Source: a virus (Duplodnaviria > Heunggongvirae > Uroviricota > Caudoviricetes). Taken from it: a DNA stretch of 18,723 nt. The stretch lies in IMG/VR virus record IMGVR_UViG_2778261420_000008; one strand, 5' to 3'. The notes beneath the pieces were generated by a model. That model saw only the letters and a list, made by a program, of their open reading frames with translations. It searched no databases and was not told where the DNA came from. Both the position numbers and the translations under genes were made by a program. How positions within the stretch are numbered: position 1 is the stretch's first letter; the number at the start of each line of letters is the position of its first letter. Below, piece by piece: positions 4,818-18,723 of this stretch.

Positions 4818-4877
4818 CCATAACCTCATTCAATGCGTCCCCCTGTAGGGCAGTACCACAGGAGGAATAACGGAAAA

Positions 4878-5840
4878 TCAACTAATCGCCTCAGCACTGG
4901 CTTTTGCGATCACGGCAGCCGGGGAATTTTTTTTTCTGGTTATCGTAGGTGCTTCATCTGCTGCGGTAATGCTCAATTGAACCTGGATAATGTCGCTATT
5001 ACCCCCATCAGGCCATTCACCTGACACCTGAACCTTCGGGAAACTGAAAGTGTATGCCCCCTCTCCATTCGAAAGCGTGAAGCTGAACGGAACTGTTTCT
5101 CCAGTCAGTGTTTTACTCCAGATTTCCCACGCGGCTTTAGACCATGAAAGCGTCACCGTACCGGACGGTGTAAAAGTAGTCGGAATATTTGCTCCTGCAT
5201 AAGGCGAGCCAGTCCCGATACAACGCTGTGTCTGGAGTTTGTTATCGAACTGAATATCAAAACTGTCGATACAAAAACCGTTACCTCCGGCAACACCATT
5301 CAGGCTTACTGCTGAAACCTCCTTAAACGAATAACGTAGCTTTCCTGCACTATCCACAGGTTCGCCTTTGATAAAATTCGTATCATCGGCCTTTGATTCC
5401 CAGTCCAGTCCGGCAAAGGTTACGGTCGCTGTAATATCGCCGTCGTTAGGGATCTGCATTTTCCATGAGCCAACCTGCGCTCCTCTGACGACAGAGGCAA
5501 TTCCGACATCGGACGCATAGGTCGCCAGAGAAAATGTTATTCGCTCATTCCCCATTGTCAGAGAATCGCCTGACCATTCCGCGCCGAAACAGGATGCAAG
5601 AAAATCATCATGTTGACCCCAGCGAAATTTGGTACCAACATCACCGCCGACATCCACAGTGCCAGGCGTCGCCCCCTGAGCCATCCGGGAGCCACCAATC
5701 TCATTATTTTCGCCTTTATTCTGGGTGGGTTTTACTCCCCAGCTTGTGCGTTTTAATAAACTCCAGTCACCACTTGCTGGCGTAGTGCCTGCAACCGTCT
5801 CCCGGATAAATGCCGAGATAACCTTTGCACCTGAACTCAC
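4878..5840 (-). CDS. major tail (tube) protein, 320 aa, GTG start
   Basis: Track ORF 4878..5840. Start codon at 5840..5838 is GTG, preceded by AGGAGG with 5-nt spacing. Lies immediately upstream of the chaperone frameshift gene, the conserved position of the major tail protein in siphophage tail modules. The sequence is not lambda gpV-like. Confidence 0.6.
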   Translation of the reverse strand: MSSGAKVISAFIRETVAGTTPASGDWSLLKRTSWGVKPTQNKGENNEIGGSRMAQGATPGTVDVGGDVGTKFRWGQHDDFLASCFGAEWSGDSLTMGNERITFSLATYASDVGIASVVRGAQVGSWKMQIPNDGDITATVTFAGLDWESKADDTNFIKGEPVDSAGKLRYSFKEVSAVSLNGVAGGNGFCIDSFDIQFDNKLQTQRCIGTGSPYAGANIPTTFTPSGTVTLSWSKAAWEIWSKTLTGETVPFSFTLSNGEGAYTFSFPKVQVSGEWPDGGNSDIIQVQLSITAADEAPTITRKKNSPAAVIAKASAEAIS

Positions 5841-5866
5841 AGGAGCCTCCTATGTCATTAATTGCG

Positions 5867-6259
5867 CTAGAGCGCGCGATATGGAATTTGAAGATTAAGC
5901 TGGAACCAGCCATTCTTTTCGCCAACGGCTATTGAGGAAACAGCCTGGTAACTGAGACGATCGTCATCCTGAAACTCAAACAGTTCCCGCAATTTATCGG
6001 CTGTCTCAGTAATGAGTTTTGAACCAGAACCTGCGGGGACAAATAACTGAATAATGATTATCCCCGTGCGATAAACAATCGGCCCCGCGCCAATTTCATT
6101 AACTCCAGCCTGCCCGGGAATATTACTTAACCGCGCCCAGATTAACTTACCGGAAGGATCGAACGTTGGCGCGTTCGGATACAATACGTCTTTTCCATCA
6201 ATAATCGTCTGTGCCGTCATTCTGGAAATAACCGTATTTCTGATTTCAGTAAACGTCAT
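5867..6259 (-). CDS. tail terminator / tail completion protein (gpU-equivalent by position), 130 aa
   Basis: Track ORF. ATGA start/stop overlap with the upstream gene at 6256..6259. Size and position between the head-tail joining genes and the major tail gene. Function assigned by synteny only. Confidence 0.5.
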   Translation of the reverse strand: MTFTEIRNTVISRMTAQTIIDGKDVLYPNAPTFDPSGKLIWARLSNIPGQAGVNEIGAGPIVYRTGIIIIQLFVPAGSGSKLITETADKLRELFEFQDDDRLSYQAVSSIAVGEKNGWFQLNLQIPYRAL

Positions 6260-6636
6260 TTGTAAGCCTGTAAAACACCATGAAAAGCGTTGGCATACAC
6301 GCCAGTTGGCGCTTGTTGTGAATGACCGTTTTCAAGAGCCTCTGCATAAGGAAGGTTATTCTGGATATAAATAACTCCGTAATTTGCAGCTTTCGAAATA
6401 ACCCCGATCCCACGCTGAACAGCAATCGTACCGTTCGGATCCACGTTATCAGATATACCAAAATCGGGATGCTGTAACGACACCAGGTTGTTATTTCTGA
6501 AACGTCCGGTATCAACCGGAGCAGCAATATCAATAGCAGTAAGAATCTGAATAGCGATGTAGCGAATCTTCAGCCCTACATCTTCCTCAATCATCCCGGC
6601 AAATATTGACGGTTCTATATCCCATGCCTTTGCCAT
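6256..6636 (-). CDS. head-tail joining protein (HK97 gp10-like by size and position), 126 aa
   Basis: Track ORF 6256..6636, translationally coupled to its neighbours. Assignment by synteny and size; family membership is a recollection, not a computed hit. Confidence 0.5.
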   Translation of the reverse strand: MAKAWDIEPSIFAGMIEEDVGLKIRYIAIQILTAIDIAAPVDTGRFRNNNLVSLQHPDFGISDNVDPNGTIAVQRGIGVISKAANYGVIYIQNNLPYAEALENGHSQQAPTGVYANAFHGVLQAYK

Positions 6637-7020
6637 TTACGCTCTCCTTAACTGGATAGAGTAAACTGATGCGGAAGGATCTACACTTGCTGTAATTACC
6701 TCGTATCGTTGTAACTGCCTTGATACAGGATCATAAATCTCAATAATATGGTCGACAGCTGGTTTATCCGTAACCTCGCATACCAGAGCGGTTAATTTAA
6801 GGTCACCATGCAAAATATTAATCCCATCAATTCTGCCCAGCTTATAACGTGTCAACACGCCTCGCCCGGTATAGATTGCGGTGGATTCGCCGCCAGTTTC
6901 CGTCACAGGATCCCAGTGCCGGTGCGTAACGTAAGAACCAGAAAAATCACTCACGGCGTCCGCTAAATCCTCATCAAAAGCAGCGGCAACCTCTGACTGA
7001 ATCTCTTCACGAAGCCCCAT
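6637..7020 (-). CDS. head-tail adaptor / head closure protein, 127 aa
   Basis: Track ORF 6637..7020, packed against neighbours with 0 to 1 nt spacing. Synteny-based call. Confidence 0.5.
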   Translation of the reverse strand: MGLREEIQSEVAAAFDEDLADAVSDFSGSYVTHRHWDPVTETGGESTAIYTGRGVLTRYKLGRIDGINILHGDLKLTALVCEVTDKPAVDHIIEIYDPVSRQLQRYEVITASVDPSASVYSIQLRRA

Positions 7021-7415
7021 TATCCCCCCCTCACAACCCTGACTTGTGAGCGACTAAGTCCGTACGGTTTCAGCAGTGCTATCGCAAGCTGTAAATCGGG
7101 TTCAAGCAATGCAGTGCTGTTTGCTGGCAACTCAGAAAATGATTTCGATACACTGACCCCGTCAGCCGACACGGCTTTACTGATAACAACGCCAGAATCA
7201 TTTTTCTGCTGAAACAACTTACCGAATGAGGCAATTCTGGCTGCATATGCTCCCGCAAGTTTTACCTCTTCCGGAATACGGGATGGGTTAATTTTCAGGT
7301 TGAAGCCATTAAGCCAGGCATTAGCCATTAAAACAGCTTTATTTTTAGCGTTCTCACTCGTCCAGGCGTTCCCAAACGCATTATCAACGTCATCACAGGT
7401 CACGTAAGTGATCAT
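7020..7415 (-). CDS. head-tail connector protein (gp6-like by position), 131 aa
   Basis: Track ORF 7020..7415. GGAG lies 7 nt upstream of the ATG at 7415. First gene of the head-tail joining block after the capsid gene. Confidence 0.5.
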   Translation of the reverse strand: MITYVTCDDVDNAFGNAWTSENAKNKAVLMANAWLNGFNLKINPSRIPEEVKLAGAYAARIASFGKLFQQKNDSGVVISKAVSADGVSVSKSFSELPANSTALLEPDLQLAIALLKPYGLSRSQVRVVRGG

Positions 7416-7418
7416 GTG

Positions 7419-7595
7419 TTACTCCTGAGTTTTCCAGCCCATAGCCTTCCAGTTGTCAACTTCATCAGGATGAACATTAGCGATAGTTGGTGCGCCGGGA
7501 AACATCTGATAATCGGTCACCATAACCACTAACTCAATTTGCGTTTTTTGTGCGGCTTCACGCTGTGCTCTTTGCTCTTTAGTTAATCCGGCCAT
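7419..7595 (-). CDS. small hypothetical protein, 58 aa (not in the ORF track)
   Basis: Manual translation gives MAGLTKEQRAQREAAQKTQIELVVMVTDYQMFPGAPTIANVHPDEVDNWKAMGWKTQE. GGGGGG lies 3 to 4 nt before the ATG, and the stop TAA is 3 nt before the ATG of the next gene (TAACACATG), suggesting translational coupling. Below the track length cut-off. Confidence 0.4.
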   Translation of the reverse strand: MAGLTKEQRAQREAAQKTQIELVVMVTDYQMFPGAPTIANVHPDEVDNWKAMGWKTQE

Positions 7596-7604
7596 ATGCC
7601 CCCC

Positions 7605-7627
7605 ATTAAAAATGGGGCCGAAGCCCC
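7605..7627 (-). terminator. intrinsic terminator immediately after the major capsid gene
   Basis: Minus-strand RNA GGGGC-UUCG-GCCCC (5-bp all-GC stem, UUCG tetraloop) followed by AUUUUUAAU, starting 11 nt after the capsid stop codon at 7638..7640. Confidence 0.5.
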
Positions 7628-7637
7628 GTTTGAATGT

Positions 7638-8777
7638 TTAACCAAGAATCAGACAACCATGTGCCGGCTTCACTGATGAAACACCCCATGCCAGTCCAAC
7701 TTCATAGCGCACCTGGCGATACTGACGATACAGTGCAATCTGGAACGTAATCCCTGAAATCGGGTCCGTAACATTCATTACATCATCAGCATTATCGCCA
7801 CCTTCCGGCATTGCCGGAGTACGGGATGCCAGCAGAAACGCGTTGCGATCAAACGCCATATTTGCCGTAAAGGCCCCAACAACTGTGATGGCAGTATCAT
7901 CGGCCAGATCCTGACGCAGTCCGGGCGCTGCAAGAGTAATCAGATTGCTGGTCGCTGCTGCCACAACATACTGATTCGGATCACCAGCGAACGTAACAAT
8001 CTGACCTGCAGAAATACTCCCCGAACCAGTATCAATGGAAATAAGAACATCGCCTTCTTTTTTCTCTCCATTCACGAGATAACCAGTTGCAGCAACCTTT
8101 GGCGCTCGTTTCACACCTGCCGAACTGTGAATATTGAATCCCTCCAGACGCCCCAACACGCCCTCACGCAGTAGCTGTTCAGTGCCGGATTCATTCACTT
8201 TAAACAATACAGACTGTTTTCCGCGCAAATTAGCAATGGCAGTGGAGCCAAGCACCATCTGCAGATCGGTTGTCGGTGCGCCGTTATCCTCCAGAACCTG
8301 ACGAGCCAGAGCAGCATCAGAAAGATCATCTTTAACACCAAACGGCGTTGTCCCTGCGGTTCCCACGGCGCGGGAAGCACCGAAATACAACGCACCAAGA
8401 TCAGCCTCAACCTCGTTTGCAAGGGCGCGAAAAGCCTGCTTGAACTGATCAGCCAGAATGGTGTTGTAAGTCCCTGAAGGGCCAAGAGCCAGTTGTTCTT
8501 CACCATTCCATTTAACCGGTGCCATTTTGGATTTAGTAATTTTTACATCAACAGTGCCAATATTTTGATCACCGGTATTCGGAGCTGACGGCCCCGGTAC
8601 GATATCTTCGGTTTTCGCCTCAGGCGCAACTGGCGCGGTTACCGTCTGATCTTTTGCTGCGGCGTCAGCTTTTACGTTTTTTGCTACCGCAGGGATAAAA
8701 CCTACCTGCTCACGGGATACAACATCCAGGGCGGTATAAATAGTCGGGATCAACCCGGTCAGGGTATTTCCAGCCAT
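7638..8777 (-). CDS. major capsid protein, 379 aa
   Basis: Track ORF 7638..8870, but the preferred start is the ATG at 8777..8775 (MAGNTLTGLIPTIY...) with AAGGAA 9 nt upstream. The longer track start would overlap the scaffold gene. Lies after portal, minor head and scaffold genes, with a terminator downstream as is typical for a highly expressed capsid gene. Confidence 0.75.
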   Translation of the reverse strand: MAGNTLTGLIPTIYTALDVVSREQVGFIPAVAKNVKADAAAKDQTVTAPVAPEAKTEDIVPGPSAPNTGDQNIGTVDVKITKSKMAPVKWNGEEQLALGPSGTYNTILADQFKQAFRALANEVEADLGALYFGASRAVGTAGTTPFGVKDDLSDAALARQVLEDNGAPTTDLQMVLGSTAIANLRGKQSVLFKVNESGTEQLLREGVLGRLEGFNIHSSAGVKRAPKVAATGYLVNGEKKEGDVLISIDTGSGSISAGQIVTFAGDPNQYVVAAATSNLITLAAPGLRQDLADDTAITVVGAFTANMAFDRNAFLLASRTPAMPEGGDNADDVMNVTDPISGITFQIALYRQYRQVRYEVGLAWGVSSVKPAHGCLILG

Positions 8778-8875
8778 AATTAAATATTCCTTAAAAATTT
8801 GCGTAATTGTGAATAGATGGAGTAATGAGCTATCCAGCCCTGACACCAGCTCCCATCCGGAAGCTGACAAATGTG

Positions 8876-9640
8876 TTAATCAACGATTGTGATACCGTCT
8901 TTCAATGCGTTTTGCTTACCTGCAACATCCAGTGCATCAAAAGCAGAGCGTTTCATCGTTTTCTGACCAATATCATGCTGTGTCGGACGGGAGCCGCCGC
9001 CATTGTTGCCACTGGCTTTCAGGATGTAGTCTTTCTGAGGGTAATTTTCGACAAGGAACTCCAGCGCCTCATCAAACTGCGCCAGTTCGCCAGGCTTCGC
9101 GCGGGAATAAATTTTGTTGCCGGAAGCGTCATAAGCAACGATCTTCCCTTCTTCCACTTTGAATGCCTGCCCGAAGCGGGCTTGTAATAAATCTGCCGGG
9201 ATCGCAATTTTATCGGCAATATATTTTGAACCCGCAAAACTACCGCCAATCATAGAATCGTAAAGCTGCGTCTCCAGCATCTGAGAGCGTTGCTTTTCTT
9301 CATCTAATTGCTGCTGAAAATTTTTCGTAATTTCTGCCTTAACCTGGTCAACCTGTCCCGCATCGATCAGCTTTTTCTGGTCGATTTTTAACAGCATTTC
9401 CAGTGCCTCGATCGCCTTCTTCGGGTCTTCGATAGCGGCAAACTTAGCCAGTTTTTCCTCTGCAGCTTCTTTAGCCAGGCGATGATTTTTTGCCTCGCCA
9501 TTAAGCTCTGTAATTTTTTTTATCGCCAGCGGTGCATCGAAGCCGATTTCTTTACCATCGTCGTGCACATAAACTGGCAGGCCAGCAGTATCAATTTCTG
9601 CGTATTGTTTTCCGTTAATCTCGACCGTTTTCAGTTTCAT
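8876..9640 (-). CDS. capsid scaffolding protein (putative), 254 aa
   Basis: Track ORF 8876..9712; the preferred start is the ATG at 9640..9638 (MKLKTVEINGKQYAEID...). Charged, helix-prone sequence (EEKLAKFAAIEDPKKAIEALEMLLKIDQKK..., EEKQRSQMLETQ) directly upstream of the major capsid gene. Confidence 0.55.
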   Translation of the reverse strand: MKLKTVEINGKQYAEIDTAGLPVYVHDDGKEIGFDAPLAIKKITELNGEAKNHRLAKEAAEEKLAKFAAIEDPKKAIEALEMLLKIDQKKLIDAGQVDQVKAEITKNFQQQLDEEKQRSQMLETQLYDSMIGGSFAGSKYIADKIAIPADLLQARFGQAFKVEEGKIVAYDASGNKIYSRAKPGELAQFDEALEFLVENYPQKDYILKASGNNGGGSRPTQHDIGQKTMKRSAFDALDVAGKQNALKDGITIVD

Positions 9641-9696
9641 ATTAGTACCTGGTTTAAGTCTTCCGACAGTTACGCTGCTCACCATCCGGATCGCAG

Positions 9697-9725
9697 CAAT
9701 AAAAAAGGCCACCCGAAGGTAGCCT
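9697..9725 (-). terminator. intrinsic terminator between the minor head protein gene and the scaffold gene
   Basis: Minus-strand RNA AGGCUACC-UUCG-GGUGGCCU (8-bp stem including one U-G wobble, UUCG tetraloop) followed by UUUUUUAUUG, about 20 nt after the stop at 9745..9747. Confidence 0.6.
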
Positions 9726-9744
9726 GTTGTAATAAATGATTTAT

Positions 9745-10860
9745 TTAAATCCCTGCTTTTCTGAATACCTGTGCATCACGCTCACGGAGTTGCTTCAGCG
9801 TCAGCCATTCGCCTTTATCGGTGTAAAATTCATCTGGCGACATACCGCCATCCCGAATCAGCTTTGCCCGGGTTTCCCCCACAATCTGTTTTTGTCTGGT
9901 GTAAGGCTGACGCAAAAACCATTCCCTGTAGGTTGTATCTCCGGCCACCACGCCATCCATGCTGGCCCGCTCAGCCGGGGAAATATCACGAACATCAATA
10001 CCCAGTTCCTTCGCTGATTTCAGAATGAACGTTTCCGTTGAGCGGCAGCAGAAATGAATTTTTCCCGGCCCATGCAAATAAGGCACACTGTGACCTACAG
10101 GTTTATTATCCAGCGTATATTTGAGGCGATCCCTGATTCGACATTGTGGCGTAGTACGATTATCAAGCGTTGATAACCATTGCTTACCCTTAATCAAATC
10201 ATTATTCGCGCTGGCAAAACTCTCACGGGCAGTAGCAGCAAGATGTCCAACCGCTGTTTTTGCAATGCTGGCCGCATTAGCCCGGCTCATCTGCAATGCA
10301 CCATCCTGAAATCCCTTGCTGACATGTCCCCGAATTTTTCTTGCGATCTGCTCATTGGTATCCCCCAGCAAAAAACCCTGACGCACCGTATTTGTTATGC
10401 GTCTGAGCCGATCCGCCTCAAGATCCAAGGCCCACTCACTGAGCAGTCGTCCCTGGAATGGTCGCGCCATTGCAGCGGCGTAAAGTGCATCAGAAGATAT
10501 ACCAACCAGAGGGTGAACATCAGCAACAAAATCAGGTAGCAGAGAATCAAACAGACTTAACTGATAACCAGCCTCATAAATTGCCAGCTCGTTCAGCTCT
10601 CCGGAGAGACTGGTAAACATGCTGTTAATAGCAGCGCGGTTAACCTCTCTGACACTCGCCAGAAGTGACTCCAGGCGCGTAACGGTAAAACTACCAGGAT
10701 CGAGGCTGTCCAGTGCTACCAGCAGGCGAGCTGTAAGCTCCGCATCGCTGTCATTCAGTATTTTCACCATTCTGGCAGCCACACCAGTGCTATAGCGGGA
10801 TATCCAGACTGCATGAGCAATTGATTCATCACGCAGCCGTTCATTCACGGTTTGCATCAT
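9745..10860 (-). CDS. minor head / head morphogenesis protein (Mu F / SPP1 gp7-like), 371 aa
   Basis: Track ORF. Lies immediately after the portal gene with a 20-nt overlap, the typical position of Mu F/SPP1 gp7-family proteins. Family assignment from recalled sequence character and synteny, not a computed profile hit. Confidence 0.6.
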   Translation of the reverse strand: MMQTVNERLRDESIAHAVWISRYSTGVAARMVKILNDSDAELTARLLVALDSLDPGSFTVTRLESLLASVREVNRAAINSMFTSLSGELNELAIYEAGYQLSLFDSLLPDFVADVHPLVGISSDALYAAAMARPFQGRLLSEWALDLEADRLRRITNTVRQGFLLGDTNEQIARKIRGHVSKGFQDGALQMSRANAASIAKTAVGHLAATARESFASANNDLIKGKQWLSTLDNRTTPQCRIRDRLKYTLDNKPVGHSVPYLHGPGKIHFCCRSTETFILKSAKELGIDVRDISPAERASMDGVVAGDTTYREWFLRQPYTRQKQIVGETRAKLIRDGGMSPDEFYTDKGEWLTLKQLRERDAQVFRKAGI

Positions 10861-12247
10861 TGATTTCCATCAACATTACACTCTGATTTTTTAATTCATC
10901 GATCACATCCTCTGGACGGGAATCCTGATCGATAAATTTCAACGCCTGCAACACCCGAACCGCATCAATCTGACGTATATCACCGCCCTGACGCAATGAC
11001 TGAACAGCCAGCGCGGAGGATGAGTCAAACACCTGGGCAGATACATCCAGTTCAGTGCGCACATCCACATTGCCACCGCAACTCTCTCCGCTCCATTCCG
11101 CCATTATCTGGAGAATATTATCGAGGGCATCTTCGAGGGAGTTCGCCATTGTATAAAGCGGCGAGTGTTCCTGCATCCGCTCTTCATTAGTCTGATCAAC
11201 AGATTTGGTGGATGTATTTTCAGCCCGCAGAAGTTTAGCGCCGGCATGACGCATCTGATTTTCCAGCTTCTCAAGTGATGTTTCGCCAGATTCTATCGCT
11301 GCGCCACTATGTTCAACATATTCGAGGCCATTTTTTGTTCTGTCCTCAAAAATCGTAGCCGTGGATGCACCAACCGTCAGTTCTTCATTCCTGTCCAGCC
11401 CGTAGGCCACCAGCAATGGAACGCGGGCAACATGAAGAATATTGTCCTGCTCGCTCTGGCTTTGCCAGTGCTTAATATTCAGCAAGCCAAGATTAAGCAA
11501 TGGCGGTGTACCACGCATAAACCCTGTTTTCTTCGTATACAGTGTTACCAGAGGAATATCATCACGGCTGGTATTCCATGACTCATGAAGCATCCAGACA
11601 GATTCGCCATTAGTACCTTCGCTGCGTCGATAAATTTCTACTCGACGGGGCATAATATGGCGGATCTGCTCCACCTTCTTCTGCCCGAAATCATCACCAT
11701 CAATAATGATGACCTCTTTTATACGCAAATCAGTGAGAACAACTTTCCCTTTTTCAACTTTCGATTTCCATCCAATAACCTGGCGTGGATTCAGCATCGT
11801 AACGTACGGGCGACCACCGGCCGCGTTTTCATCGGCTTTTGTCCGAATCTCGTTCATATCCGTTCGTGGATAGTCCACCAGCGCATGTGCCACACCATAC
11901 TGAAATGCGAGACTGAAAAATTGCTGCGCCCACACATCCAGTCGGCTCCCCTCCATGTCGATATTTTCTGCATATTCCCTGATTTTTTCCGGCGTTTCCT
12001 CACTCAATACTGTCGGCTCTGCAAATATGCGCCCAATATTTTGTTTGATGCTTTCTTCATACACAGGAAGTAACGTAGCCACAGACAGGCGTTTTTTATA
12101 AGCGTCTTCATCTTCATTAGGCCATTTGGGGAGATAATTTTCCCCCTGCCTGCGCATTTCAAGCGTACCGCCCATCAATGCGTCGTTAATATCCCACGCC
12201 TCCAGCATATCGTTATAGTCGAGGTTGGGTGTTGATATATCAGCCAT
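10841..12247 (-). CDS. portal protein, 468 aa
   Basis: Track ORF. Directly follows the large terminase gene (stop TAA, 2 nt, then ATG), with a size typical of portal proteins. Synteny-based. Confidence 0.7.
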   Translation of the reverse strand: MADISTPNLDYNDMLEAWDINDALMGGTLEMRRQGENYLPKWPNEDEDAYKKRLSVATLLPVYEESIKQNIGRIFAEPTVLSEETPEKIREYAENIDMEGSRLDVWAQQFFSLAFQYGVAHALVDYPRTDMNEIRTKADENAAGGRPYVTMLNPRQVIGWKSKVEKGKVVLTDLRIKEVIIIDGDDFGQKKVEQIRHIMPRRVEIYRRSEGTNGESVWMLHESWNTSRDDIPLVTLYTKKTGFMRGTPPLLNLGLLNIKHWQSQSEQDNILHVARVPLLVAYGLDRNEELTVGASTATIFEDRTKNGLEYVEHSGAAIESGETSLEKLENQMRHAGAKLLRAENTSTKSVDQTNEERMQEHSPLYTMANSLEDALDNILQIMAEWSGESCGGNVDVRTELDVSAQVFDSSSALAVQSLRQGGDIRQIDAVRVLQALKFIDQDSRPEDVIDELKNQSVMLMEINDANRE

Positions 12248-12249
12248 AA

Positions 12250-13551
12250 TTAAATCCGAAGTGATGTGACTCTTCCGGTCGGTTTGACAATAGGGAATTG
12301 CTTAACGATGAAATAACCTCCGGCATCATTCGGGTGATCATTGCCAGATTTTTTATCAGGCTCCCCCTTATCATCCCAGACCTGTTGCTCCAGAGATTCG
12401 GCATATACCGGACAACGCTTCACATTAACTTTATAGCGACGCTCACCATTGGCATTGCAGAACATTGCATTCATTGAGTTAACGCGATCTTTTACTGGCG
12501 GGTTCGAGCTGTTCACCACAACGTTAAAACCTGCCTGCTTAAGCTGGGCTATATCCGTCGTACTTGCGTTACTTGATTTTCTGGAATCTCCGGAAGCATC
12601 TGGATAAATATAAATCTCCCTCACTTTCCGGTAATCATGCCCGTCATACAGCCAGAAGCGTTCTTTAATGAGGCGGATCATATCCGGCGTATCGTAGGCA
12701 TTGATGATTTCAGTTACCGCACATGGAAGCCCCAAACGCAGCACATGGACGATTCCCGCCATCTTTCCAACGTTAAAATCCATCCCAATATAAATCGGCT
12801 CCCCTGGCTGCTCCACTTCTTCGCAATTATTCAGTTTCCGGTCAAACTGATGGTAAACAGTACCACTTGTCAGGTTAGTAAACCGTCCTAGAAGATAGGC
12901 TTTAATCAGCTCTGGAGGGTATGATTCAAGAAGTGAAGGAATGTAATCTGCTGGCAGGTTCTTTTCATTATCGAAAGTAGATGCCTGCACCAGACCATAC
13001 AGTGAGGCCAGCTCTGTTTTTTCACGCACGGCTTTAACAAACTGCTCGTAGACAAATTTGAATCCTTCCGGCGTGGTTGTAACGTCAATACCGTTGCGAA
13101 GTCCATCAATCTTATAACGCATACGCGCAATTATCTTGCGCCACGCCGTTCTGGCTTTTTCCTTCGGCAAAATGTCCAGTTCATCCACCAGCGCATTACC
13201 AATTTTGAAACCGACGATCGTTTGTGGCTTCTCCATCGATCTGCAGATAGTGGTTCCCCGATACTGGCGTCCGTAATAAAAGTGAACCTCTTTATTTCCC
13301 TCATTAATTTTTACGTTCAATCCCCAGTCAGCAGCAACTTCTTCCACTGTAGGGTAAAAAATATCGCGAATTTGGGGATACGTTGGCGCAAAATATCCCT
13401 GATTTATACCTGGATGCTCCCAAATCCCCTTGCATATGCCGCCACACCCAACCCATGTTTTGCCCGAGCCAAAACCAGCAATATAGGCTTTAAATTTATG
13501 GGGCATTGAAAGAAATCGCGCCTGAGGCACATTAAGCGTCGGAGAGATCAT
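12250..13551 (-). CDS. terminase large subunit, 433 aa
   Basis: Track ORF 12250..13560. Walker A motif AGFGSGKTW near the N-terminus and a Walker B-like LVDELD. Preferred start is the ATG at 13551 (MISPTLNV...) because AAGGAG lies 8 nt upstream; the track start at 13560 is GTG with no spacing. Overlaps the small terminase by 20 nt. Confidence 0.85.
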   Translation of the reverse strand: MISPTLNVPQARFLSMPHKFKAYIAGFGSGKTWVGCGGICKGIWEHPGINQGYFAPTYPQIRDIFYPTVEEVAADWGLNVKINEGNKEVHFYYGRQYRGTTICRSMEKPQTIVGFKIGNALVDELDILPKEKARTAWRKIIARMRYKIDGLRNGIDVTTTPEGFKFVYEQFVKAVREKTELASLYGLVQASTFDNEKNLPADYIPSLLESYPPELIKAYLLGRFTNLTSGTVYHQFDRKLNNCEEVEQPGEPIYIGMDFNVGKMAGIVHVLRLGLPCAVTEIINAYDTPDMIRLIKERFWLYDGHDYRKVREIYIYPDASGDSRKSSNASTTDIAQLKQAGFNVVVNSSNPPVKDRVNSMNAMFCNANGERRYKVNVKRCPVYAESLEQQVWDDKGEPDKKSGNDHPNDAGGYFIVKQFPIVKPTGRVTSLRI

Positions 13552-14626
13552 CTTCATCACTCCTTAATCTGGCATCAACCACATTAATATTGATCGCCAC
13601 AGGCTGGGGATGTTCATTATCCTCCACCGTTTCGATCTCTTTGCGCAGCTTCTGGTTCTCTATTCTGCGCCGTTCAATTTCCAGTTCCTGTAGCCGCTTA
13701 TCTGCACATAATGCCCCGCCAGCAGAAAGCAAACGCAACAATTCACGCCGGGCGGCAGCCTTATCCTCCAGCAGGATCTCAACACCGTATTTTCCGAGCT
13801 TTGACCCTGCATATAATTGCCGCGCATCCCCATCAAGCAGTGTGGTATCAGCCATATAAAGCTGTCCTGTTCCCTCACCGCAGCACTTCGGGCAATCAGG
13901 ATTGGGTATGGCGTTATCAACAAAGCCGAGGCCTCCATATTCCGGCTCGGGTTTACCATCTCTGGAGGCCTGTGCCGCAGCCTTATCGAATTCTGCAATA
14001 TCACGCCACTGGTAGAGATGATTCTCGCCCCAGCAATAACGGCAGTTAACACGGCGAAATTGTGCCAACTGATTGGGGTCGGCCTGGACAATGGCCATCA
14101 ACTGGCTCACCAGTAAATCCAGGTCTGCGGTATAGCGTTTCTGGTACTGATTGCGGAAGTAGCTGATAGCACGATAAACCCTGGCATTTCTAAGCATACG
14201 GCTGGCGTTGCTGTTAGCTGTCGCACCTTGCCCCTCATAACCAGCCAGTCGGTATGCCTCTGTCGGCTTTTTCCCCTGAGCAACCAACATGGCGAATTTT
14301 GCCTGCTGGTCAGAAATACCGAATTCATCGGGGCAGAACGAAATTTCTTCCGTGTCCCCCTCAATCAGGAGTGCATCGGATACAGCCTTTTTTTTCTGAG
14401 ATTTTCCGTTCTGCCTTTGCGCAGTCTGCGCAGTTTTTTTTCGCGCACTTTTTTGCGCAGTTTTGCGCATTTCTTTCTGCGCATTTTTCGGAGTTTTTTT
14501 GATGTAACGACGGGCTGTTGCGTAGTTCAGTCCCCTTGCTTCACACCATGCCACCGGAGATATACCGGAGCGGGTGTATTCAGCAATATACTCCTGCTGC
14601 AACGCCCCCCAGTCCGGTCTGCTCAT
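13532..14626 (-). CDS. terminase small subunit (N-terminal HTH-like region, central Terminase_2-like motif, C-terminal Cys-rich putative zinc ribbon), 364 aa
   Basis: Track ORF. The central EAYRLAGYEGQGATANSNASRMLRNARVYRAISYF resembles the small-terminase signature I recall; the C-terminal part carries CRYC...CPKCC. Sits immediately upstream of, and overlapping, the large terminase gene. Contains a lysine-rich low-complexity linker encoded by the TGCGCA repeat cluster. Confidence 0.7.
   Translation of the reverse strand: MSRPDWGALQQEYIAEYTRSGISPVAWCEARGLNYATARRYIKKTPKNAQKEMRKTAQKSARKKTAQTAQRQNGKSQKKKAVSDALLIEGDTEEISFCPDEFGISDQQAKFAMLVAQGKKPTEAYRLAGYEGQGATANSNASRMLRNARVYRAISYFRNQYQKRYTADLDLLVSQLMAIVQADPNQLAQFRRVNCRYCWGENHLYQWRDIAEFDKAAAQASRDGKPEPEYGGLGFVDNAIPNPDCPKCCGEGTGQLYMADTTLLDGDARQLYAGSKLGKYGVEILLEDKAAARRELLRLLSAGGALCADKRLQELEIERRRIENQKLRKEIETVEDNEHPQPVAININVVDARLRSDEDDLSDA
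14418..14483. repeat. cluster of six palindromic TGCGCA-type hexamers (five exact, one CGCGCA), each followed by a T-run, inside the small-terminase coding sequence
   Basis: Exact TGCGCA at 14418, 14427, 14454, 14464 and 14478; CGCGCA at 14442; spacings 9 to 15 bp. On the coding strand it encodes the basic linker KNAQKEMRKTAQKSARKKTAQTAQRQ. Confidence 0.8.
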
Positions 14627-14629
14627 CAG

Positions 14630-14881
14630 TTAGTCCTGATTTTTATCCACCCTGAGTAGTTCGCGCAGAGCAAAGGCATCCCCTTTTCTGGCAAGCTTAA
14701 ACAATGCCGCTCGTAACTCGGCTTCACCTTTCGCTCTGCCCTTACGGATGGCCGCATAAAAATCTGTCATTGCTTCCCGATTTTCTTTCAGTCGGTTCAG
14801 ATCAACATCCAGAACGTCAGCGATTTGTTGTGCAGTCATCCGGCACGCTGCCAGAGACTCGACTTTCGAATACGGAATCAT
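14630..14881 (-). CDS. small hypothetical protein, possible HTH DNA-binding / packaging accessory protein, 83 aa
   Basis: Track ORF. GGGGGTG lies 5 nt before the ATG at 14881, and the stop is 3 nt before the small-terminase ATG. The segment MTAQQIADVLDVDLNRLKE looks like a helix-turn-helix. Overlaps the 3-prime end of the upstream gene by 65 nt in another frame. Confidence 0.5.
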   Translation of the reverse strand: MIPYSKVESLAACRMTAQQIADVLDVDLNRLKENREAMTDFYAAIRKGRAKGEAELRAALFKLARKGDAFALRELLRVDKNQD

Positions 14882-15749
14882 TTGTCACCCCCATTGATAT
14901 GCAGGGTGTCTTCTTCCTGTATTTTTCGTGAAGGATTTTTACTGCAGCGTTGTTCCAGGTGACCTGATGGTGAATGCGTTTATGGCTGGCACCCATCAGT
15001 GAGATTTTTACGCACGACGGCGAATACATGACGGAGTAAAAACTTTTAACGTAGGTTCCGGAATCCAGATACAGCTCGGTCATTCCGCCGCTGTTTTTCT
15101 GCGTCTGTTTCTGCCCTAACTGGACAGCACCGATCGTCATAAACAATTCACCACAGCGACCGAGATTCGTGTACGTATTCACATCCTCGTTAATGCGCCC
15201 CATGAATGAGAACGGTCGATCAACCGAACAGATAAAGCTGTTCATTGCCTTGCGTTTCACCCACGAAGCATGGCCGCCATTGTCACCAAGAAAATCCCCG
15301 CCCTGCGACATAGCGATGGAAAGCGCGGGTATTGATTCGTAATACGCCAGCATTTCAGAAAGGATCGCATCCAGTTTCCTTATCGGGAAATAGGCCTGGT
15401 CATAGTTGCGATCCACCCGAAACTGGAACTCGTGATAATCATCATCGAGCTGAATGAAGTATTTACACCCGACCAGTTTTGCCAGGTCGAAACAGGCATT
15501 ACGGGCGTAAAAAATTGAGCGGCGATCACCAAAATTATCGGCTTCGTCAAAACGACTGGCAATATCGGCTTTGGAAAATACCAGCACCTGTTCACCAAAT
15601 TCAGCCATGTACTGATGCCGTGTCTTATCTTCATCATCAACAACGATAAAAATTTTCCCGGTATAGCCAGCACGACGCAACGTCCGGTAAGTCAGAACTT
15701 TGTCCGGTCGCCCGTGAGTCAGAATAAAGGCGCAAAAATCATCACGCAT
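14817..15749 (-). CDS. soluble GT-A-like (family 2-like) glycosyltransferase-like protein, 310 aa; function unknown
   Basis: Track ORF 14817..15773. Preferred start is the ATG at 15749 (MRDDFCAFILTHGRP...), preceded by GGAGGAGGAGGAGGAA. N-terminal FILTHGRPDKV...GKIFIVVDDED and the later KYFIQLDDDY resemble the two acidic motifs of GT-A glycosyltransferases as I recall them. No long hydrophobic segments. May correspond to the K-12 Rac ydaY remnant (recollection). Confidence 0.55.
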   Translation of the reverse strand: MRDDFCAFILTHGRPDKVLTYRTLRRAGYTGKIFIVVDDEDKTRHQYMAEFGEQVLVFSKADIASRFDEADNFGDRRSIFYARNACFDLAKLVGCKYFIQLDDDYHEFQFRVDRNYDQAYFPIRKLDAILSEMLAYYESIPALSIAMSQGGDFLGDNGGHASWVKRKAMNSFICSVDRPFSFMGRINEDVNTYTNLGRCGELFMTIGAVQLGQKQTQKNSGGMTELYLDSGTYVKSFYSVMYSPSCVKISLMGASHKRIHHQVTWNNAAVKILHEKYRKKTPCISMGVTNDSVFESRVSGSVPDDCTTNR

Positions 15750-16536
15750 ATTCCTCCTCCTCCTCCCCGCCATGCATGATCTCCACCATGCGCTGCGTCA
15801 TTCGGACAAATCCATTTTCAATAGCCTGCTGATAATCAATGATCACCAGCGCCGACTCCTCGAAAAGGCACTGAATTTCAGCGGGGGCATGAGCGTAATA
15901 GTCCGCAATTCTGCTGAAATTAAACACTGTGTGACGTTCTGCCGCACACAGGAGGAATTTCTCAATATCAGGATCAAGGGACGCCGAACGTATCCGGCTG
16001 ATCAGCTCCTGAGTTTTCGTATCGTCGTACAGTTCACTGATATCCGGTTTACCGCCCGACGGCTCATAAACAGGCGTATCAATTTTCGTCGTATACGGCT
16101 CCTCCTCATTTCCTGTACCGGGCAAAACATCCGTCAACAGTTCATCAATTTCTGTCGGGATGAAGCCTGTCAGGGAGACATCAAAATCAGCATTGATTAG
16201 GTCCGACAGCTCCATCCGCAACAGATCTTCATCCCAGCCAGCATTCATCGGCAGGCGATTATCTGCCAGGCGGTACGCCTTTTTCTGCTCATCCGTCAGG
16301 CCAGACAGAACAATGACCGGAACAGAATCCATTTTGAGCATTTCAGCCGCCATAACACGACCGTGACCCGCAATAATTTCGCCCTTTTCGTCAATCAGCA
16401 CCGGATTAGTCCAGCCGAATTGCTTAATACTTTCTACCAGTTGTGCCACCTGCTCAGGGCTGTGCGTCCTGGCGTTGTGCGCATACGGTGACAATTCTTG
16501 TAATGGGCGATAGACTATCTTTAATTTCTCGCTCAT
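15742..16536 (-). CDS. ParB-like nuclease domain (ParB/Srx fold) protein with acidic C-terminal tail, 264 aa
   Basis: Track ORF. N-terminal YRPLQELSPYAHNARTHSPEQVAQLVESIKQFGWTNPVLIDEKGEIIAGHGRVMAA carries the GxGR motif characteristic of the ParB N-terminal domain. AAGG lies 8 nt before the ATG at 16536. C-terminus is GGEEEEEYA. May correspond to K-12 Rac ynaK (recollection). Confidence 0.75.
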   Translation of the reverse strand: MSEKLKIVYRPLQELSPYAHNARTHSPEQVAQLVESIKQFGWTNPVLIDEKGEIIAGHGRVMAAEMLKMDSVPVIVLSGLTDEQKKAYRLADNRLPMNAGWDEDLLRMELSDLINADFDVSLTGFIPTEIDELLTDVLPGTGNEEEPYTTKIDTPVYEPSGGKPDISELYDDTKTQELISRIRSASLDPDIEKFLLCAAERHTVFNFSRIADYYAHAPAEIQCLFEESALVIIDYQQAIENGFVRMTQRMVEIMHGGEEEEEYA

Positions 16537-16550
16537 ACAGCCTTGCTTTA

Positions 16551-16587
16551 TGAATAAAACGCACCCCAGCAGCCAGTGCTACTGGGG
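16551..16587 (-). terminator. intrinsic terminator downstream of trkG
   Basis: Minus-strand RNA CCCCAGUAGC-ACUG-GCUGCUGGGG (10-bp stem with one U-G wobble, 4-nt loop) followed by UGCGUUUUAUUCA, about 90 nt after the trkG stop and directly before the ribosome-binding site of the ParB-like gene. Confidence 0.6.
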
Positions 16588-16673
16588 ACGGAGGGGTTGC
16601 TGGTAAAGTTAGGTATTGGATCAATGAGTGAGTCAACATAATATTAAACTCACAATTATAAATCAGCCATATA

Positions 16674-18131
16674 TTAGGAGCGCCAAAAAAAACCTGAAAA
16701 CAATATAATAACAGGATAAATTTCAAGGCGACCAAGAATCATAGCTATGCACATTAAACATTTTGCAATGTCATTAAGCACTCCGAATGACGATGCAGTA
16801 GCCCCAAAACCTAATCCCATATTATTAATACATGCAGCCACTGTTGCAAATGATGTAAGAAAATCATATCCCATACCATTTAACACCAGTATAAAAAACA
16901 CCGTGAAGAGAGTATAAAGAAAAAAGAAACTCCATACAGACCTCATTACACGATCTGTAACTATCTTCCCTCCTACATTTACACTCAACAACGCTCTGGG
17001 ATGAGAAAGCTGATTTATCTCGTGTTTGCTTTGTTTGAAAAGTATAAGAAATCGAAGTGACTTAATTCCACCACAAGTTGAACCTATACATCCCCCAAAG
17101 AAACTTGACAACAGCAAAAACACTATCGTGTGCGTGGGCCAACTTGCATAATCCTGCGTAGCTAAACCATTATCAGTGAGCATGGAGCTGGCAAGAAAAA
17201 ACGAATGAATAAAACTTCCATGCAAGTCATACATACCTATATGCCAGACCTGGAAAGAGGTAACAATGATCACCCCTAAGGCTATTAACAGAAAGAAACG
17301 AAGTTCAATATCTCTGATTAAAGGTTTTATCGTTTTCCTGCTAATAACAATATACCAAAGAGTGAAGTTGAAAGCCGATAGCAGGGAAAAAGAACCAGCC
17401 ACCAGCTCAACCAAATAGTTATTAAAATATCCGATACTCTCGCTATGAGTTGAGAAACCACCAAGCGAAACTGTGGAAATCCCGTGACAAATAGCATCAA
17501 ACAAAGGCATTCCTGCAAGTCTATAACAGACAATACAAGCAATACCTAATAAAGAATAAGTTATCCACAGTGTCCGTGACGTATCGGCCAGGCGGGGAGT
17601 GAGTTTGTCATCCTTAAATGGCCCCGGCATTTCTGACTGATAAAGCTTTGCACCACCAATACCCAATAATGGCAATACAGCAACCGCCAGAACAATAACT
17701 CCTAAACCACCTATAAAATTTAACTGTGACCGATAGTACAAATATGCCCGAGGTAATGAACTAACATCATCAATTACAGTTGCTCCTGTTGTTGTTATTC
17801 CAGAAACCCCTTCAAACAGAGCATCAATGAACGTTAAATTAAGTTCTGAGTCAATCCATAAAGGGAATGCACTAATAACAGAAAACAAAATCCAAAACAT
17901 TACAATTATAATAAACCCATCACGGGTACGTAATTGAATGCCAGATTTCTTAGTTGTATACCACGCTCCGCCACCAATGCAAAAAAATATAACGAAAGTT
18001 ATAAAGAAAACGAACAGGCTTTTTTCTTTATAAAACAATGCTACAACCATTGGTGGCAACATTGAAAGACTATAGAGCCAAACCAGGAACCCACACATAT
18101 GAGTAACAACTCTTACATGAGATGTATTCAT
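16674..18131 (-). CDS. trkG: TrkH-family potassium uptake protein TrkG, 485 aa
   Basis: Track ORF 16674..18149; the ATG at 18131 gives MNTSHVRVVTHMCGFLVWLYSL..., which I recognise as E. coli TrkG. Strong similarity to TrkH throughout (SGITTTGATV, LYQSEMPGPFKDDK, GGFSTHSESIGYF, FGRLEIYP). The track start at 18149 is TTG and rejected. Visibly AT-rich compared with neighbouring phage genes. Confidence 0.9.
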   Translation of the reverse strand: MNTSHVRVVTHMCGFLVWLYSLSMLPPMVVALFYKEKSLFVFFITFVIFFCIGGGAWYTTKKSGIQLRTRDGFIIIVMFWILFSVISAFPLWIDSELNLTFIDALFEGVSGITTTGATVIDDVSSLPRAYLYYRSQLNFIGGLGVIVLAVAVLPLLGIGGAKLYQSEMPGPFKDDKLTPRLADTSRTLWITYSLLGIACIVCYRLAGMPLFDAICHGISTVSLGGFSTHSESIGYFNNYLVELVAGSFSLLSAFNFTLWYIVISRKTIKPLIRDIELRFFLLIALGVIIVTSFQVWHIGMYDLHGSFIHSFFLASSMLTDNGLATQDYASWPTHTIVFLLLSSFFGGCIGSTCGGIKSLRFLILFKQSKHEINQLSHPRALLSVNVGGKIVTDRVMRSVWSFFFLYTLFTVFFILVLNGMGYDFLTSFATVAACINNMGLGFGATASSFGVLNDIAKCLMCIAMILGRLEIYPVIILFSGFFWRS

Positions 18132-18268
18132 ATCTAAATATTCTTTCAATTATAACCACCTTGCTGCAATATTATGATTATACTGTATAAAATTTAACTC
18201 CTCTTAGATCTTACTTCACTGTTCCTTATGAAACAATCATCAAAATGAATCATATTGTAGTTAAGATT

Positions 18269-18673
18269 TTACTTTAAACACTGCTCGGTTATGTATTGCT
18301 GAGCACCTTCAAGTTGGGCCTGCATCATTACCAGTCGTTCCCGGAGGGTGAAATAATCCCGTTCAGCGGTGTCTGCCAGTCGGGGGGAGGCTGCATTATC
18401 CACGCCGGAGGCGGTGGTGGCTTCACGCACTGACTGACAGACTGCTTTGATGTGCAACCGACGACGACCAGCGGCAACATCATCACGCAGAACATCATTT
18501 TCAGCTTTCGCATCAGCTAACTCCTTCGTGTATTTTGCATCGAGCGCAGCAACATCACGCTGACGCATCTGCATGTCAGTAATTGCCGCGTTCGCCAGCT
18601 TCAGTTCTCTGGCATTTTTGTCGCGCTGTTCTTTGTAGGCGATGGCTGGATTTGCCCCTATATTTCCAGACAC
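18269..18673 (-). pseudogene. rzpR: Rz-type i-spanin lacking its N-terminal transmembrane segment (5-prime truncated, likely pseudogene)
   Basis: Track ORF. The protein from [51 protein letters not shown]... matches lambda Rz from memory, but the frame opens with GTG at 18673 immediately after an in-frame TAA (18677..18679). None of the three frames upstream to the window end encodes a hydrophobic segment. Confidence 0.7.
18328..18513 (-). CDS. rzoR: Rz1-type o-spanin outer-membrane lipoprotein, 61 aa, embedded in the +1 frame of the Rz gene
   Basis: Track [27 protein letters not shown]... has a signal peptide and lipobox (VVGC), followed by the proline-rich [15 protein letters not shown], nearly identical to lambda Rz1 from memory. 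Entirely nested in the Rz reading frame. Confidence 0.85.
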
Positions 18674-18723
18674 CTGTTATCACTTAACCCATTACTGGCC
18701 TGCTGCCGCAGATATTCCCGTGG

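Follow-up and report, generated by a model that had tools for sequence, protein, structure and literature searches.

[quoted passage not shown] It is located in rac and has a GC content of 38%, compared with 53% for the gene of the chromosomal paralogue TrkH (PMC9898762). K-12 TrkG has TrkA-dependent K+ transport activity, and its Na+ dependence has been linked to residue D327 (PMC9898762). TrkH belongs to the same Pfam family and also catalyzes TrkA-dependent K+ uptake, but shares only ∼41% identity with the Na+-dependent TrkG. Lux reporter activity of the K-12 trkG promoter, a trkG mRNA level similar to that of trkH, and an increase in trkG mRNA in hns and hns stpA mutants, indicating partial repression by H-NS, have been published (PMC9898762). 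Reporter activity in a prophage-free host has also been reported for the K-12 spacer fragment. Genomic SELEX in K-12 identified a constitutive sigma-70 promoter of trkG, bound by the RpoD holoenzyme, and the paper states that trkG entered Rac "together with its promoter". trkG ranks with the best conserved genes of rac, and this holds even for strains in which half of the prophage is gone (PMC5700373).

Other cargo genes are found at comparable positions. The lambdoid morons past Rz (lambda bor, iss) are, like trkG, host-benefit genes located between Rz and terminase and expressed from the repressed prophage, and bor/iss and other small genes occupy the Rz-terminase interval in other E. coli prophages. 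In the prophages examined, iss, ylcI and a DUF1398 gene lie on the strand opposite to the late operon, whereas trkG is co-oriented with it, so that late transcription has to pass through the gene and a terminator is required if the downstream genes are to be insulated in the lysogen. In Rac-like prophages of type II ETEC, the operon for the heat-labile enterotoxin LT-II (Jobling & Holmes 2012, PMC3252337; Jobling 2016, as related in PMC5917428) occupies the same slot as trkG, with lysis genes upstream and the same ParB-like gene downstream. Like trkG, the LT-II operon has a markedly low GC content (28-40%) and runs in the direction of the late operon, but its cargo is an AB5 toxin rather than an ion transporter, and the adjacent lysis cassette consists of holin_8, holin_3_7 and a GH108 endolysin, in place of the S/R/Rz of the trkG prophage. 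LT-II expression has been proposed to depend on induction, while that of trkG is constitutive.

Here we analyze a window of 18,723 nt (IMG/VR record IMGVR_UViG_2778261420_000008) that carries trkG. Because K-12 has lost the Q, holin and lysozyme region as well as the packaging and head genes, how trkG relates to a functioning late operon can be seen only in intact prophages such as that of the window. A first, sequence-only reading interpreted trkG as the K+ transporter cargo of a prophage; this is essentially right, and such cargo of Rac-type E. coli prophages is already published and not novel. The main value of the analysis is thus confirmatory, in that the K-12 trkG story is seen in its intact prophage context. 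Modest additions are a backbone terminator that trkG-less relatives share in a different structural form, the sharing of the slot with LT-II, and the deletion scar at ynaK/ydaY.

The trkG locus in an intact Rac-type prophage

Gene order and Pfam matches identify the window as the late region of an intact Rac-type prophage. A full-length relative of this prophage is integrated beside ttcA and carries racR, recET and an annotated gene for the Q antiterminator. The features discussed here are encoded on the minus strand of the window. Rz (i-spanin; 18269..18723; Phage_lysis, PF03245, 1.9e-53) is the last gene of the lysis cassette and is cut by the window end; it contains an embedded Rz1/RzoR ORF (18328-18513), and K-12 rzpR/rzoR map to this Rz region. 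It is followed by the non-coding trkG 5' spacer of 137 nt (18132..18268), which by the published K-12 work holds the trkG promoter, the trkG CDS (16674..18131), the trkG 3' untranslated region (16588..16673), and an intrinsic-terminator-like element in backbone DNA (16553..16587). Next is a full-length ParB_N-domain gene (15742..16536; ParB_N, 1.2e-6; phrog_620, 1.5e-90), preceded by an SD-like AAGG (16544-16541). This gene is the right neighbor of the cargo slot and the first of a ParB-TAGT-TerS-TerL module, and its end overlaps the gene for a TAGT-family glycosyltransferase (14817..15773; PF20691, 6.1e-35; phrog_842, 1.5e-103). The placement of trkG between lysis and packaging genes therefore holds, with Rz upstream and with two DNA-metabolism genes (ParB_N and TAGT) intervening before TerS and TerL. 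A Rfam scan of 15500-18723 at E <= 1 matched no RNA family (riboswitch or sRNA).

Of 5426 complete E. coli genomes, 1541 contain the trkG cassette with its flanks, and the phage records that contain it are all Rac-like; trkG is nearly invariant (>99% identity) wherever this prophage occurs. The K-12 Rac prophage has the same gene, spacer and hairpin as the window, and the same left (rzpR/rzoR) and right (ynaK) neighbors. Between 16500 and 18300, the window differs from K-12 at three bases, none of which is in the spacer or the hairpin, so that the published K-12 work applies directly to the window. The spacer corresponds to K-12 positions 1,423,645-1,423,781 (NC_000913.3), with its distal TATAAT at 1,423,731-1,423,736 and a start site predicted near 1,423,743. 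The hairpin with its U-tract corresponds to 1,425,326-1,425,360, of which about 1,425,350-1,425,360 matches window positions 16553-16563, 3' of the hairpin.

Base composition and insertion slot

trkG had been read as visibly more AT-rich than the phage genes on either side, and a windowed comparison of GC content and codon usage bears this out, showing that composition across the region is not uniform and that trkG is distinct from the flanking genes. The trkG CDS has a GC content of 38.1% and a GC3 of 32.3%, compared with 44.1-52.3% and 37.8-55.1%, respectively, for the 17 other genes of the window, and 71% of its codons end in A or T, compared with 47-63% for individual phage genes. Sliding control windows of 1458 nt outside the cassette (n=1508) have a mean GC content of 47.3% (sd 1.8, minimum 42.2%), and trkG lies below the minimum. 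A two-change-point likelihood fit delimits the low-GC block at 16604-18297. The cassette thus has the composition, distinct from that of the surrounding phage genes, that is characteristic of a moron, an extra gene unit of a phage genome as defined by Juhala/Hendrix 2000.

The left junction of the cassette lies directly after the Rz stop codon (18271-18269), where the homology to other lambdoid Rz genes ends. Replacement of the Rz 3' end by the insertion was considered and rejected, since alignment with other lambdoid Rz genes continues over the C-terminus up to and including the stop codon. The right junction lies at about 16605-16630, within the trkG 3' untranslated region, of which the AT-rich cargo part extends to this point and is followed by backbone-homologous DNA. 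The cargo part contains a 7-bp stem-loop (GTGAGT..ACTCAC).

Presence and absence at the same position, a further characteristic of morons, is also observed: among IMG/VR loci with a 95-100% identical ParB, most have trkG and 13 do not. These trkG-less relatives have other lysis cassettes, and their slot holds 120-400 nt or a toxin operon, which in relative L187 is the LT-II enterotoxin operon. The carriage of this operon by related prophages marks the slot as a hot spot for cargo. A search of the relatives for an empty site, with this Rz directly beside this ParB gene, found none, and tblastn of Rz against the 13 trkG-less loci gave no match; the direction of change in the slot can therefore not be polarized.

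The TrkG protein and its homologs

Translation from the ATG at 18131 gives a protein of 485 aa, with a possible 491-aa form from a TTG at 18149. The cation-transport domain is full-length (TrkH, PF02386, 5e-145 over residues 40-483), and the protein scores 415 bits against TIGR00933 (cutoff 331). It matches the E. coli TrkG cluster (4894 members) at 100% identity and lies under the TrkH equivalog cutoff (450 vs 866 bits). By its sequence, the protein falls in the TrkG rather than the TrkH paralogue group. D327 is present, and is invariant in 10 aligned homologs of the TrkG clade. In line with the K-12 work, the gene is predicted to encode a Na+-dependent K+ uptake subunit of the Trk system.

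In E. fergusonii, Citrobacter, Pectobacterium, Buttiauxella and Morganella, TrkG homologs (62-79% aa identity) lie in ordinary chromosomal settings. This points to capture of trkG by the phage. The nearest non-prophage homologs (E. fergusonii 79%, Citrobacter 77% and Pectobacterium 75% aa identity) all have a higher GC content (42-46%), and alignment of their flanks extends no further than 23 nt before the CDS and 4 nt after it. A donor search among the trkG homologs found none with a GC content as low as 38%.

The upstream spacer and the trkG promoter

The AT-rich non-coding stretch with a TATAAT, noted upstream of trkG in the sequence-only reading, has a GC content of 25.5% and contains two such hexamers on the trkG coding strand, a distal one at 18182-18177 (a candidate -10 element) and a proximal one at 18154-18149. 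In shuffles of the spacer, at least one TATAAT occurs with a probability of 0.29 and at least two with a probability of 0.045, so that a single hexamer is not significant. No recognizable -35 element lies beside either hexamer. A sigma-70 consensus scan called neither of them and found fewer promoter-like matches than in shuffles, and so lends no independent support to a promoter. An SD-like AAGGTGG is present at 18162-18156. The proximal TATAAT overlaps the alternative TTG start codon of trkG and its Shine-Dalgarno sequence, and is less likely than the distal hexamer to be the -10 element.

In the diverged trkG copy of E. albertii, the 137-nt spacer is conserved along with the gene. Its distal TATAAT is kept there and in the chromosomal trkG of E. 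fergusonii, although the surrounding sequence diverges. An own promoter active in the repressed prophage is a further property of morons. The spacer by itself offers only -10 hexamers with no -35, while the K-12 literature on the identical spacer shows promoter-lux activity, RpoD binding in SELEX and constitutive mRNA. Since the K-12 Rac prophage has lost the region of Q, holin and lysozyme, trkG expression in K-12 does not come from late transcription. The view that trkG is AT-rich foreign cargo, has a promoter of its own and is active in the lysogen from within a late operon is thus supported, mostly by published K-12 experiments on an identical spacer and hairpin.

The hairpin upstream of the ParB gene

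A strong terminator had been placed just before the ribosome-binding site of the gene downstream of trkG, and a hairpin with a T-tract is indeed present there (16587-16553). The hairpin CCCCAGTAGC-ACTG-GCTGCTGGGG (16587-16564) is followed by TGCGTTTTATT. Its stem of 10 bp (7 G-C) encloses a 4-nt loop, and the fold is extended by CGU/GCG and then followed by UUUUAUU, the U-tract being interrupted (UGCGUUUUAUU). It folds at -22.5 kcal/mol (z = -2.9 vs shuffles) and ranks first among all terminator-like sites in the window, with 17 nt between the end of the T-tract and the ATG of the ParB gene (16536). The element thus has the form of an intrinsic terminator, with a G+C-rich stem, a short loop and a U-rich tract directly 3'. 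Termination at the hairpin, and with it a need for terminator-resistant late transcription, is plausible. The supplements of the eLife 2021 3'-end mapping contain no entry for trkG, and no mapped trkG 5' or 3' ends were found in the literature searched. Across ∼82 trkG-carrying loci, there are no variable sites in the 24-nt stem-loop and ∼10 in 127 flanking positions; this invariance is not counted as evidence of constraint, since variable sites are too few for significance.

The 13 trkG-less relatives, whose ParB module is 95-96% identical to that of the window, have a different terminator-like hairpin with a T6 (U6) tract at the homologous place before the ParB ribosome-binding site, and this hairpin shows two compensatory pair changes. 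The prophage with the LT-II operon keeps a long-range form of the backbone hairpin. The homology of the trkG-less relatives to the window starts just upstream of the hairpin, and identity to one of them (L089) climbs from background to 60-75% at about 16610. Because the relatives share the hairpin DNA in this way, the terminator is assigned to the phage backbone and not to the cargo. On the 3' side, the diverged trkG copies of E. albertii and E. fergusonii remain homologous to the window only up to 4 nt past the stop codon, and a scan immediately downstream of the E. albertii copy found no terminator-like site. The description of the cassette as self-contained accordingly stands for the spacer, which travels with trkG (as in E. 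albertii), but not for the terminator, which lies in backbone-homologous DNA and was not imported with the unit. It is conceivable, though improbable, that the ParB gene was ancestrally preceded by a long-range terminator whose distal arm was lost when the cargo inserted, the compact hairpin being rebuilt from the former loop under selection for lysogen silence of the packaging genes.

Proposed expression of trkG in the lysogen and after induction

The explanation that, as a whole, best accounts for the locus, and that we consider probable with good confidence, is that trkG is a cargo cassette with its own promoter, expressed in the lysogen, ending at the hairpin and read through late. The slot, flanked by the lysis cassette on one side and the ParB-TAGT-terminase module on the other, would have received a chromosomal K+ transporter gene of the TrkG clade with ∼137 nt of its own upstream DNA. 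Lysogens would transcribe trkG from its own sigma-70 promoter in the spacer, most likely with 18182-18177 as the -10 element; H-NS and StpA would dampen but not silence this transcription, and TrkG would form a Na+-dependent K+ uptake system with the host TrkA. Transcription in the lysogen, dampening by H-NS/StpA and the partnership with TrkA are shown in the published K-12 work on the identical sequence. The transcript would most likely end at the hairpin and U-tract, and termination there would prevent expression of the ParB, TAGT and packaging genes in lysogens. The cargo would thereby use a hairpin that belongs to the backbone and did not arrive with the imported DNA. Once the prophage is induced, RNA polymerase modified by Q would arrive from upstream of the lysis genes and continue past trkG and the terminator into the packaging and head genes.

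The hairpin could instead be a structural element of the late operon, such as a signal for mRNA stability or processing or an attenuator at a module boundary, with the trkG 3' end set elsewhere, e.g. by Rho or H-NS. Its location in backbone-homologous DNA and the retention of a covarying hairpin with U6 in the trkG-less relatives agree with such a role, as does the presence of three further intergenic hairpins with T-tracts, which follow the MuF, coat and tail genes of the late operon on its coding strand and resemble typical late-operon punctuation. However, the stable stem with its directly adjoining U-rich tract has the canonical form of an intrinsic terminator, which acts on any unmodified polymerase, including those from the trkG promoter; terminator and structural roles are moreover not mutually exclusive, and we consider a purely structural role unlikely.

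A use of trkG by the phage itself, with strong late transcription, K+ uptake aiding lytic development and only secondary expression in the lysogen, would fit its near invariance and its co-orientation with the late genes downstream of Rz, where antiterminated read-through is expected. Against this, K-12 retains trkG as an expressed and functional gene although its Rac prophage is defective and has no late transcription, trkG is among the best conserved rac genes in half-lost prophages (PMC5700373), and related prophages lack trkG and have their slot filled with other cargo, making such a primary lytic role quite improbable. A dual use, in which constitutive, H-NS-dampened expression in the lysogen is joined by strong late co-transcription after induction and K+ uptake raises phage yield, is likewise a long shot. 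Hardly credible at all is a trkG without a promoter of its own, whose expression would depend entirely on read-through from phage promoters further upstream and whose TATAAT hexamers would have arisen by chance in AT-rich DNA. The lack of a -35 and of a consensus-scan call and the occurrence of TATAAT in 29% of shuffles speak for it, but the K-12 promoter-lux activity, RpoD SELEX binding and trkH-like mRNA level were obtained with an identical spacer and no late promoter region, and E. albertii and E. fergusonii have both preserved the distal TATAAT amid divergence.

The deletion in the K-12 Rac prophage

Homology of the window to K-12 ends at 16283. Compared with the intact prophage of the window, the K-12 Rac prophage lacks 11,563 bp (window 4720-16282), from about codon 85 of the ParB gene to a tail gene. 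What K-12 still has of the full-length ParB_N gene is the truncated ynaK, and the ynaK/ydaY junction is the scar of this 11.6-kb deletion of packaging and head genes.

Base composition and gene order

All long ORFs of the window lie on the minus strand. In reading direction they encode Rz (PF03245), TrkG (PF02386, 5e-145), a ParB_N protein and a TAGT-family glycosyltransferase. TerS, TerL, a DUF4055 portal-type protein and a Mu-F-like head protein come next, and the ORFs after these are coat, tail and tape-measure genes according to the annotation of a near-identical phage record. This public record, Escherichia phage vB_EcoS-683R6, makes the whole element visible as a lambdoid prophage adjoining ttcA, with an integrase, recET, racR, replication genes, a Q antiterminator and S/R/Rz lysis genes, followed by trkG and then the packaging and morphogenesis genes. 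It is an intact form of the Rac prophage, and the order rzpR/rzoR-trkG-ynaK is the same in the defective Rac of E. coli K-12.

trkG (16674-18131, minus strand) has 38.1% GC and 32.3% GC3, while the other 17 genes of the window have 44-52% GC, and the lowest value in 1458-nt control windows elsewhere is 42.2%. Codons ending in A or T make up 71% of trkG, compared with 47-63% in each phage gene, and a two-change-point fit places the low-GC block at 16604-18297. trkG is more AT-rich than its neighbours, as the sequence-only reading had proposed.

The ParB_N-domain gene and the overlapping TAGT gene (14817-16536, minus strand) lie directly upstream of terS and may form a DNA-modification or packaging-associated module. 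The TAGT product is variously named TET-associated glycosyltransferase (PF20691), "beta-glucosyl-HMC-alpha-glucosyltransferase" (phrog_842) and "GREB1-related protein" (RefSeq). Between the TAGT gene and terS, an 83-aa ORF (14630-14881, minus strand) matches a terminase small-subunit PHROG only internally (positions 145-218); it may be a piece of terS or encode a small accessory protein that binds DNA.

Upstream spacer, start codon and expression

The AT-rich stretch noticed 5′ of trkG (18132-18268, 137 nt, 25.5% GC) carries two TATAAT hexamers, one distal (18182-18177) and one proximal (18154-18149). In shuffled spacers, one hexamer is expected by chance in 29% and two in 4.5%, and TATAAT occurrence alone is weak evidence for a promoter; neither hexamer has a -35 element or is called by a consensus promoter scan. 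The left limit of the imported DNA is marked by other lambdoid Rz genes, whose alignment with the window includes the Rz stop codon (18271-18269) and ends there. The E. albertii trkG copy (93% amino acid, 84% nucleotide identity) keeps the whole spacer with both hexamers, as well as what is left, in degraded form, of the Rz 3′ end. The chromosomal E. fergusonii trkG, whose upstream region is otherwise unalignable, also has a TATAAT in the place of the distal hexamer. The spacer therefore travels with trkG, and of the two hexamers the distal one is the better candidate for the -10. The proximal hexamer overlaps a TTG at 18149, an alternative start giving a 491-aa product, with AAGGTGG 5′ at 6-nt spacing (18147-18162, minus strand). 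RefSeq annotates an ATG start (485 aa), but the TTG may be the true start because of this spacing, the 491-aa annotation of TrkG homologues in Pectobacterium and other genera, the ATT that replaces the in-frame ATG at the Pectobacterium locus, and the 491 positions of the PHROG profile for phage TrkG.

Between 16500 and 18300 only three bases separate the window from K-12 MG1655 (18012, 16758 and 16595), none of them in the spacer or hairpin, so experiments on K-12 apply to it. The GC contrast (38% vs 53%) and rac location were described by Tanudjaja et al., who also reported increased trkG mRNA in hns and hns stpA mutants, an active trkG promoter-luciferase fusion, trkG mRNA at about the trkH level, and Na+-dependent K+ uptake linked to D327 (PMC9898762). 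D327 is present in the window TrkG and does not vary across an alignment of ten TrkG-clade homologues. Genomic SELEX by Yamamoto et al. placed a constitutive RpoD-holoenzyme promoter at trkG, among the few in any K-12 prophage (PMC5811629), and trkG behaves as a single-gene operon in the H-NS regulon (PMC5797941) and is among the best-conserved rac genes (PMC5700373). The region with the Q, holin and lysozyme genes is missing from K-12 Rac, so its trkG expression cannot be late read-through. The proposal that trkG is expressed in the lysogen from its own promoter is therefore borne out by the published K-12 work on an identical spacer (PMC9898762, PMC5811629).

K-12 Rac matches the window over 16283-18646 and then jumps to 4719-2960. 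The ynaK/ydaY junction is thus the scar of an 11,563-bp deletion (window 4720-16282), which begins at about ParB codon 85, removes the TAGT, terminase, portal and head genes and reaches into a tail gene.

The 3′ hairpin and the cargo site

The terminator-like hairpin noticed before the ribosome-binding site of the next gene is present, and is the top such site of the entire window: CCCCAGTAGC-ACTG-GCTGCTGGGG (16587-16564), then TGCGTTTTATT, with a fold of -22.5 kcal/mol (z = -2.9), ending 17 nt 5′ of the ParB ATG (16536). The E. albertii and E. fergusonii copies are homologous to the window only as far as 4 nt past the trkG stop codon; a scan found no terminator-like site immediately 3′ of E. 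albertii trkG, and no obvious terminator was seen 3′ of the E. fergusonii gene. Of the IMG/VR loci whose ParB gene is 95-100% identical to that of the window, 13 have neither trkG nor its spacer and 3′ region, and also lack the lambda-type Rz. Their identity to the window climbs from background to 60-75% near 16610, in agreement with the compositional change point at 16604, and reaches 85-95% from 16560 on, through the T-tract, ribosome-binding site and ParB gene.

At the homologous place (2918-2990 in loci L113, L155, L164, L174, L185 and L187; window counterpart 16553-16630), these trkG-less relatives have a 13+2-bp long-range stem with a ∼27-nt loop, then U6 before the ParB ribosome-binding site (-23.3 kcal/mol, z = -2.6). 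Six distinct sequences of this stem include two pairs with compensatory double changes and several G-U-compatible single changes. The window keeps sequence homologous to the 3′ arm (GCTGCTGGGG), now partnered by CCCCAGTAGC from part of the former loop, while most of the distal 5′ arm has been replaced close to the cargo junction. Since the trkG-less relatives have their own hairpin and U6 here, a hairpin and U-tract just 5′ of the ParB ribosome-binding site belong to the ParB-terminase module whether or not trkG is present. The compact hairpin looks like a terminator re-formed beside the cargo junction, although the long form may instead be the derived one; ordering the compact and long forms needs an outgroup.

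The observation behind the sequence-only reading is confirmed, and its interpretation is largely right and already in the literature. The sole substantive correction concerns the "self-contained" cassette: the spacer does travel with trkG, but at its 3′ end the cassette uses a terminator belonging to the phage backbone.

The lysis-ParB interval is a cargo site. The trkG-less relatives have another type of lysis cassette (two holins with an M15 or GH108 endolysin), and before their backbone hairpins carry small ORFs only or, in L187 (IMG/VR UViG_2563366820_000003), type II heat-labile enterotoxin genes (1514-2732; Enterotoxin_a 2e-119, LT-IIB 2.9e-57; 28-40% GC) in a slot homologous to window 16605-18268, with the lysis genes on one side and the ParB gene on the other. 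The LT-II operon and trkG are both AT-rich and share this slot, although the lysis cassettes differ in type. This position of LT-II in full-sized Rac-like prophages of type II ETEC, flanked by a phage lysozyme gene and a parB-like gene, has been published (PMC3252337; PMC5917428, citing Jobling 2016). Elsewhere among lambdoid prophages, iss/bor-type genes and other small genes lie between Rz and the terminase genes.

In the lysogen, the trkG transcript would end at 16553-16563, and after induction Q-modified polymerase would read through trkG and the hairpin into the downstream late genes. No mapped RNA ends for trkG were found in a literature search. Three more G+C-rich hairpin/T-tract sites lie in intergenic positions on the coding (minus) strand, after the Mu-F-like gene (9725-9706), after the coat gene (7627-7614) and before the tape-measure gene (3940-3917). 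They fit a late operon dependent on antiterminated polymerase and, with the Q gene of vB_EcoS-683R6, are consistent with Q read-through after induction.

Distribution and origin of trkG

At a coverage of 80% or more, 1541 of 5426 complete E. coli genomes contain the 2-kb stretch around trkG, and the identity is nearly always above 99%; among phage records the stretch is confined to Rac-like ones. Enterobacterales commonly carry TrkG protein homologues (62-79% identity), Buttiauxella and Morganella species among them. Those inspected sit in ordinary chromosomal neighbourhoods in E. fergusonii (between porin genes and a DJ-1-like gene), Citrobacter and Pectobacterium (after pth-ychF), which argues that a TrkG clade exists as a chromosomal gene and that one member was captured by the phage. 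The donor of the Rac trkG was not found among these homologues, whose GC is 42-51%, none being as AT-rich. The copy in E. albertii NBRC 107761 (L008, 5819-7462) has flanking DNA wholly unlike the window on both sides and no ParB gene after it; it looks like a Rac-type insertion that is old and has decayed.
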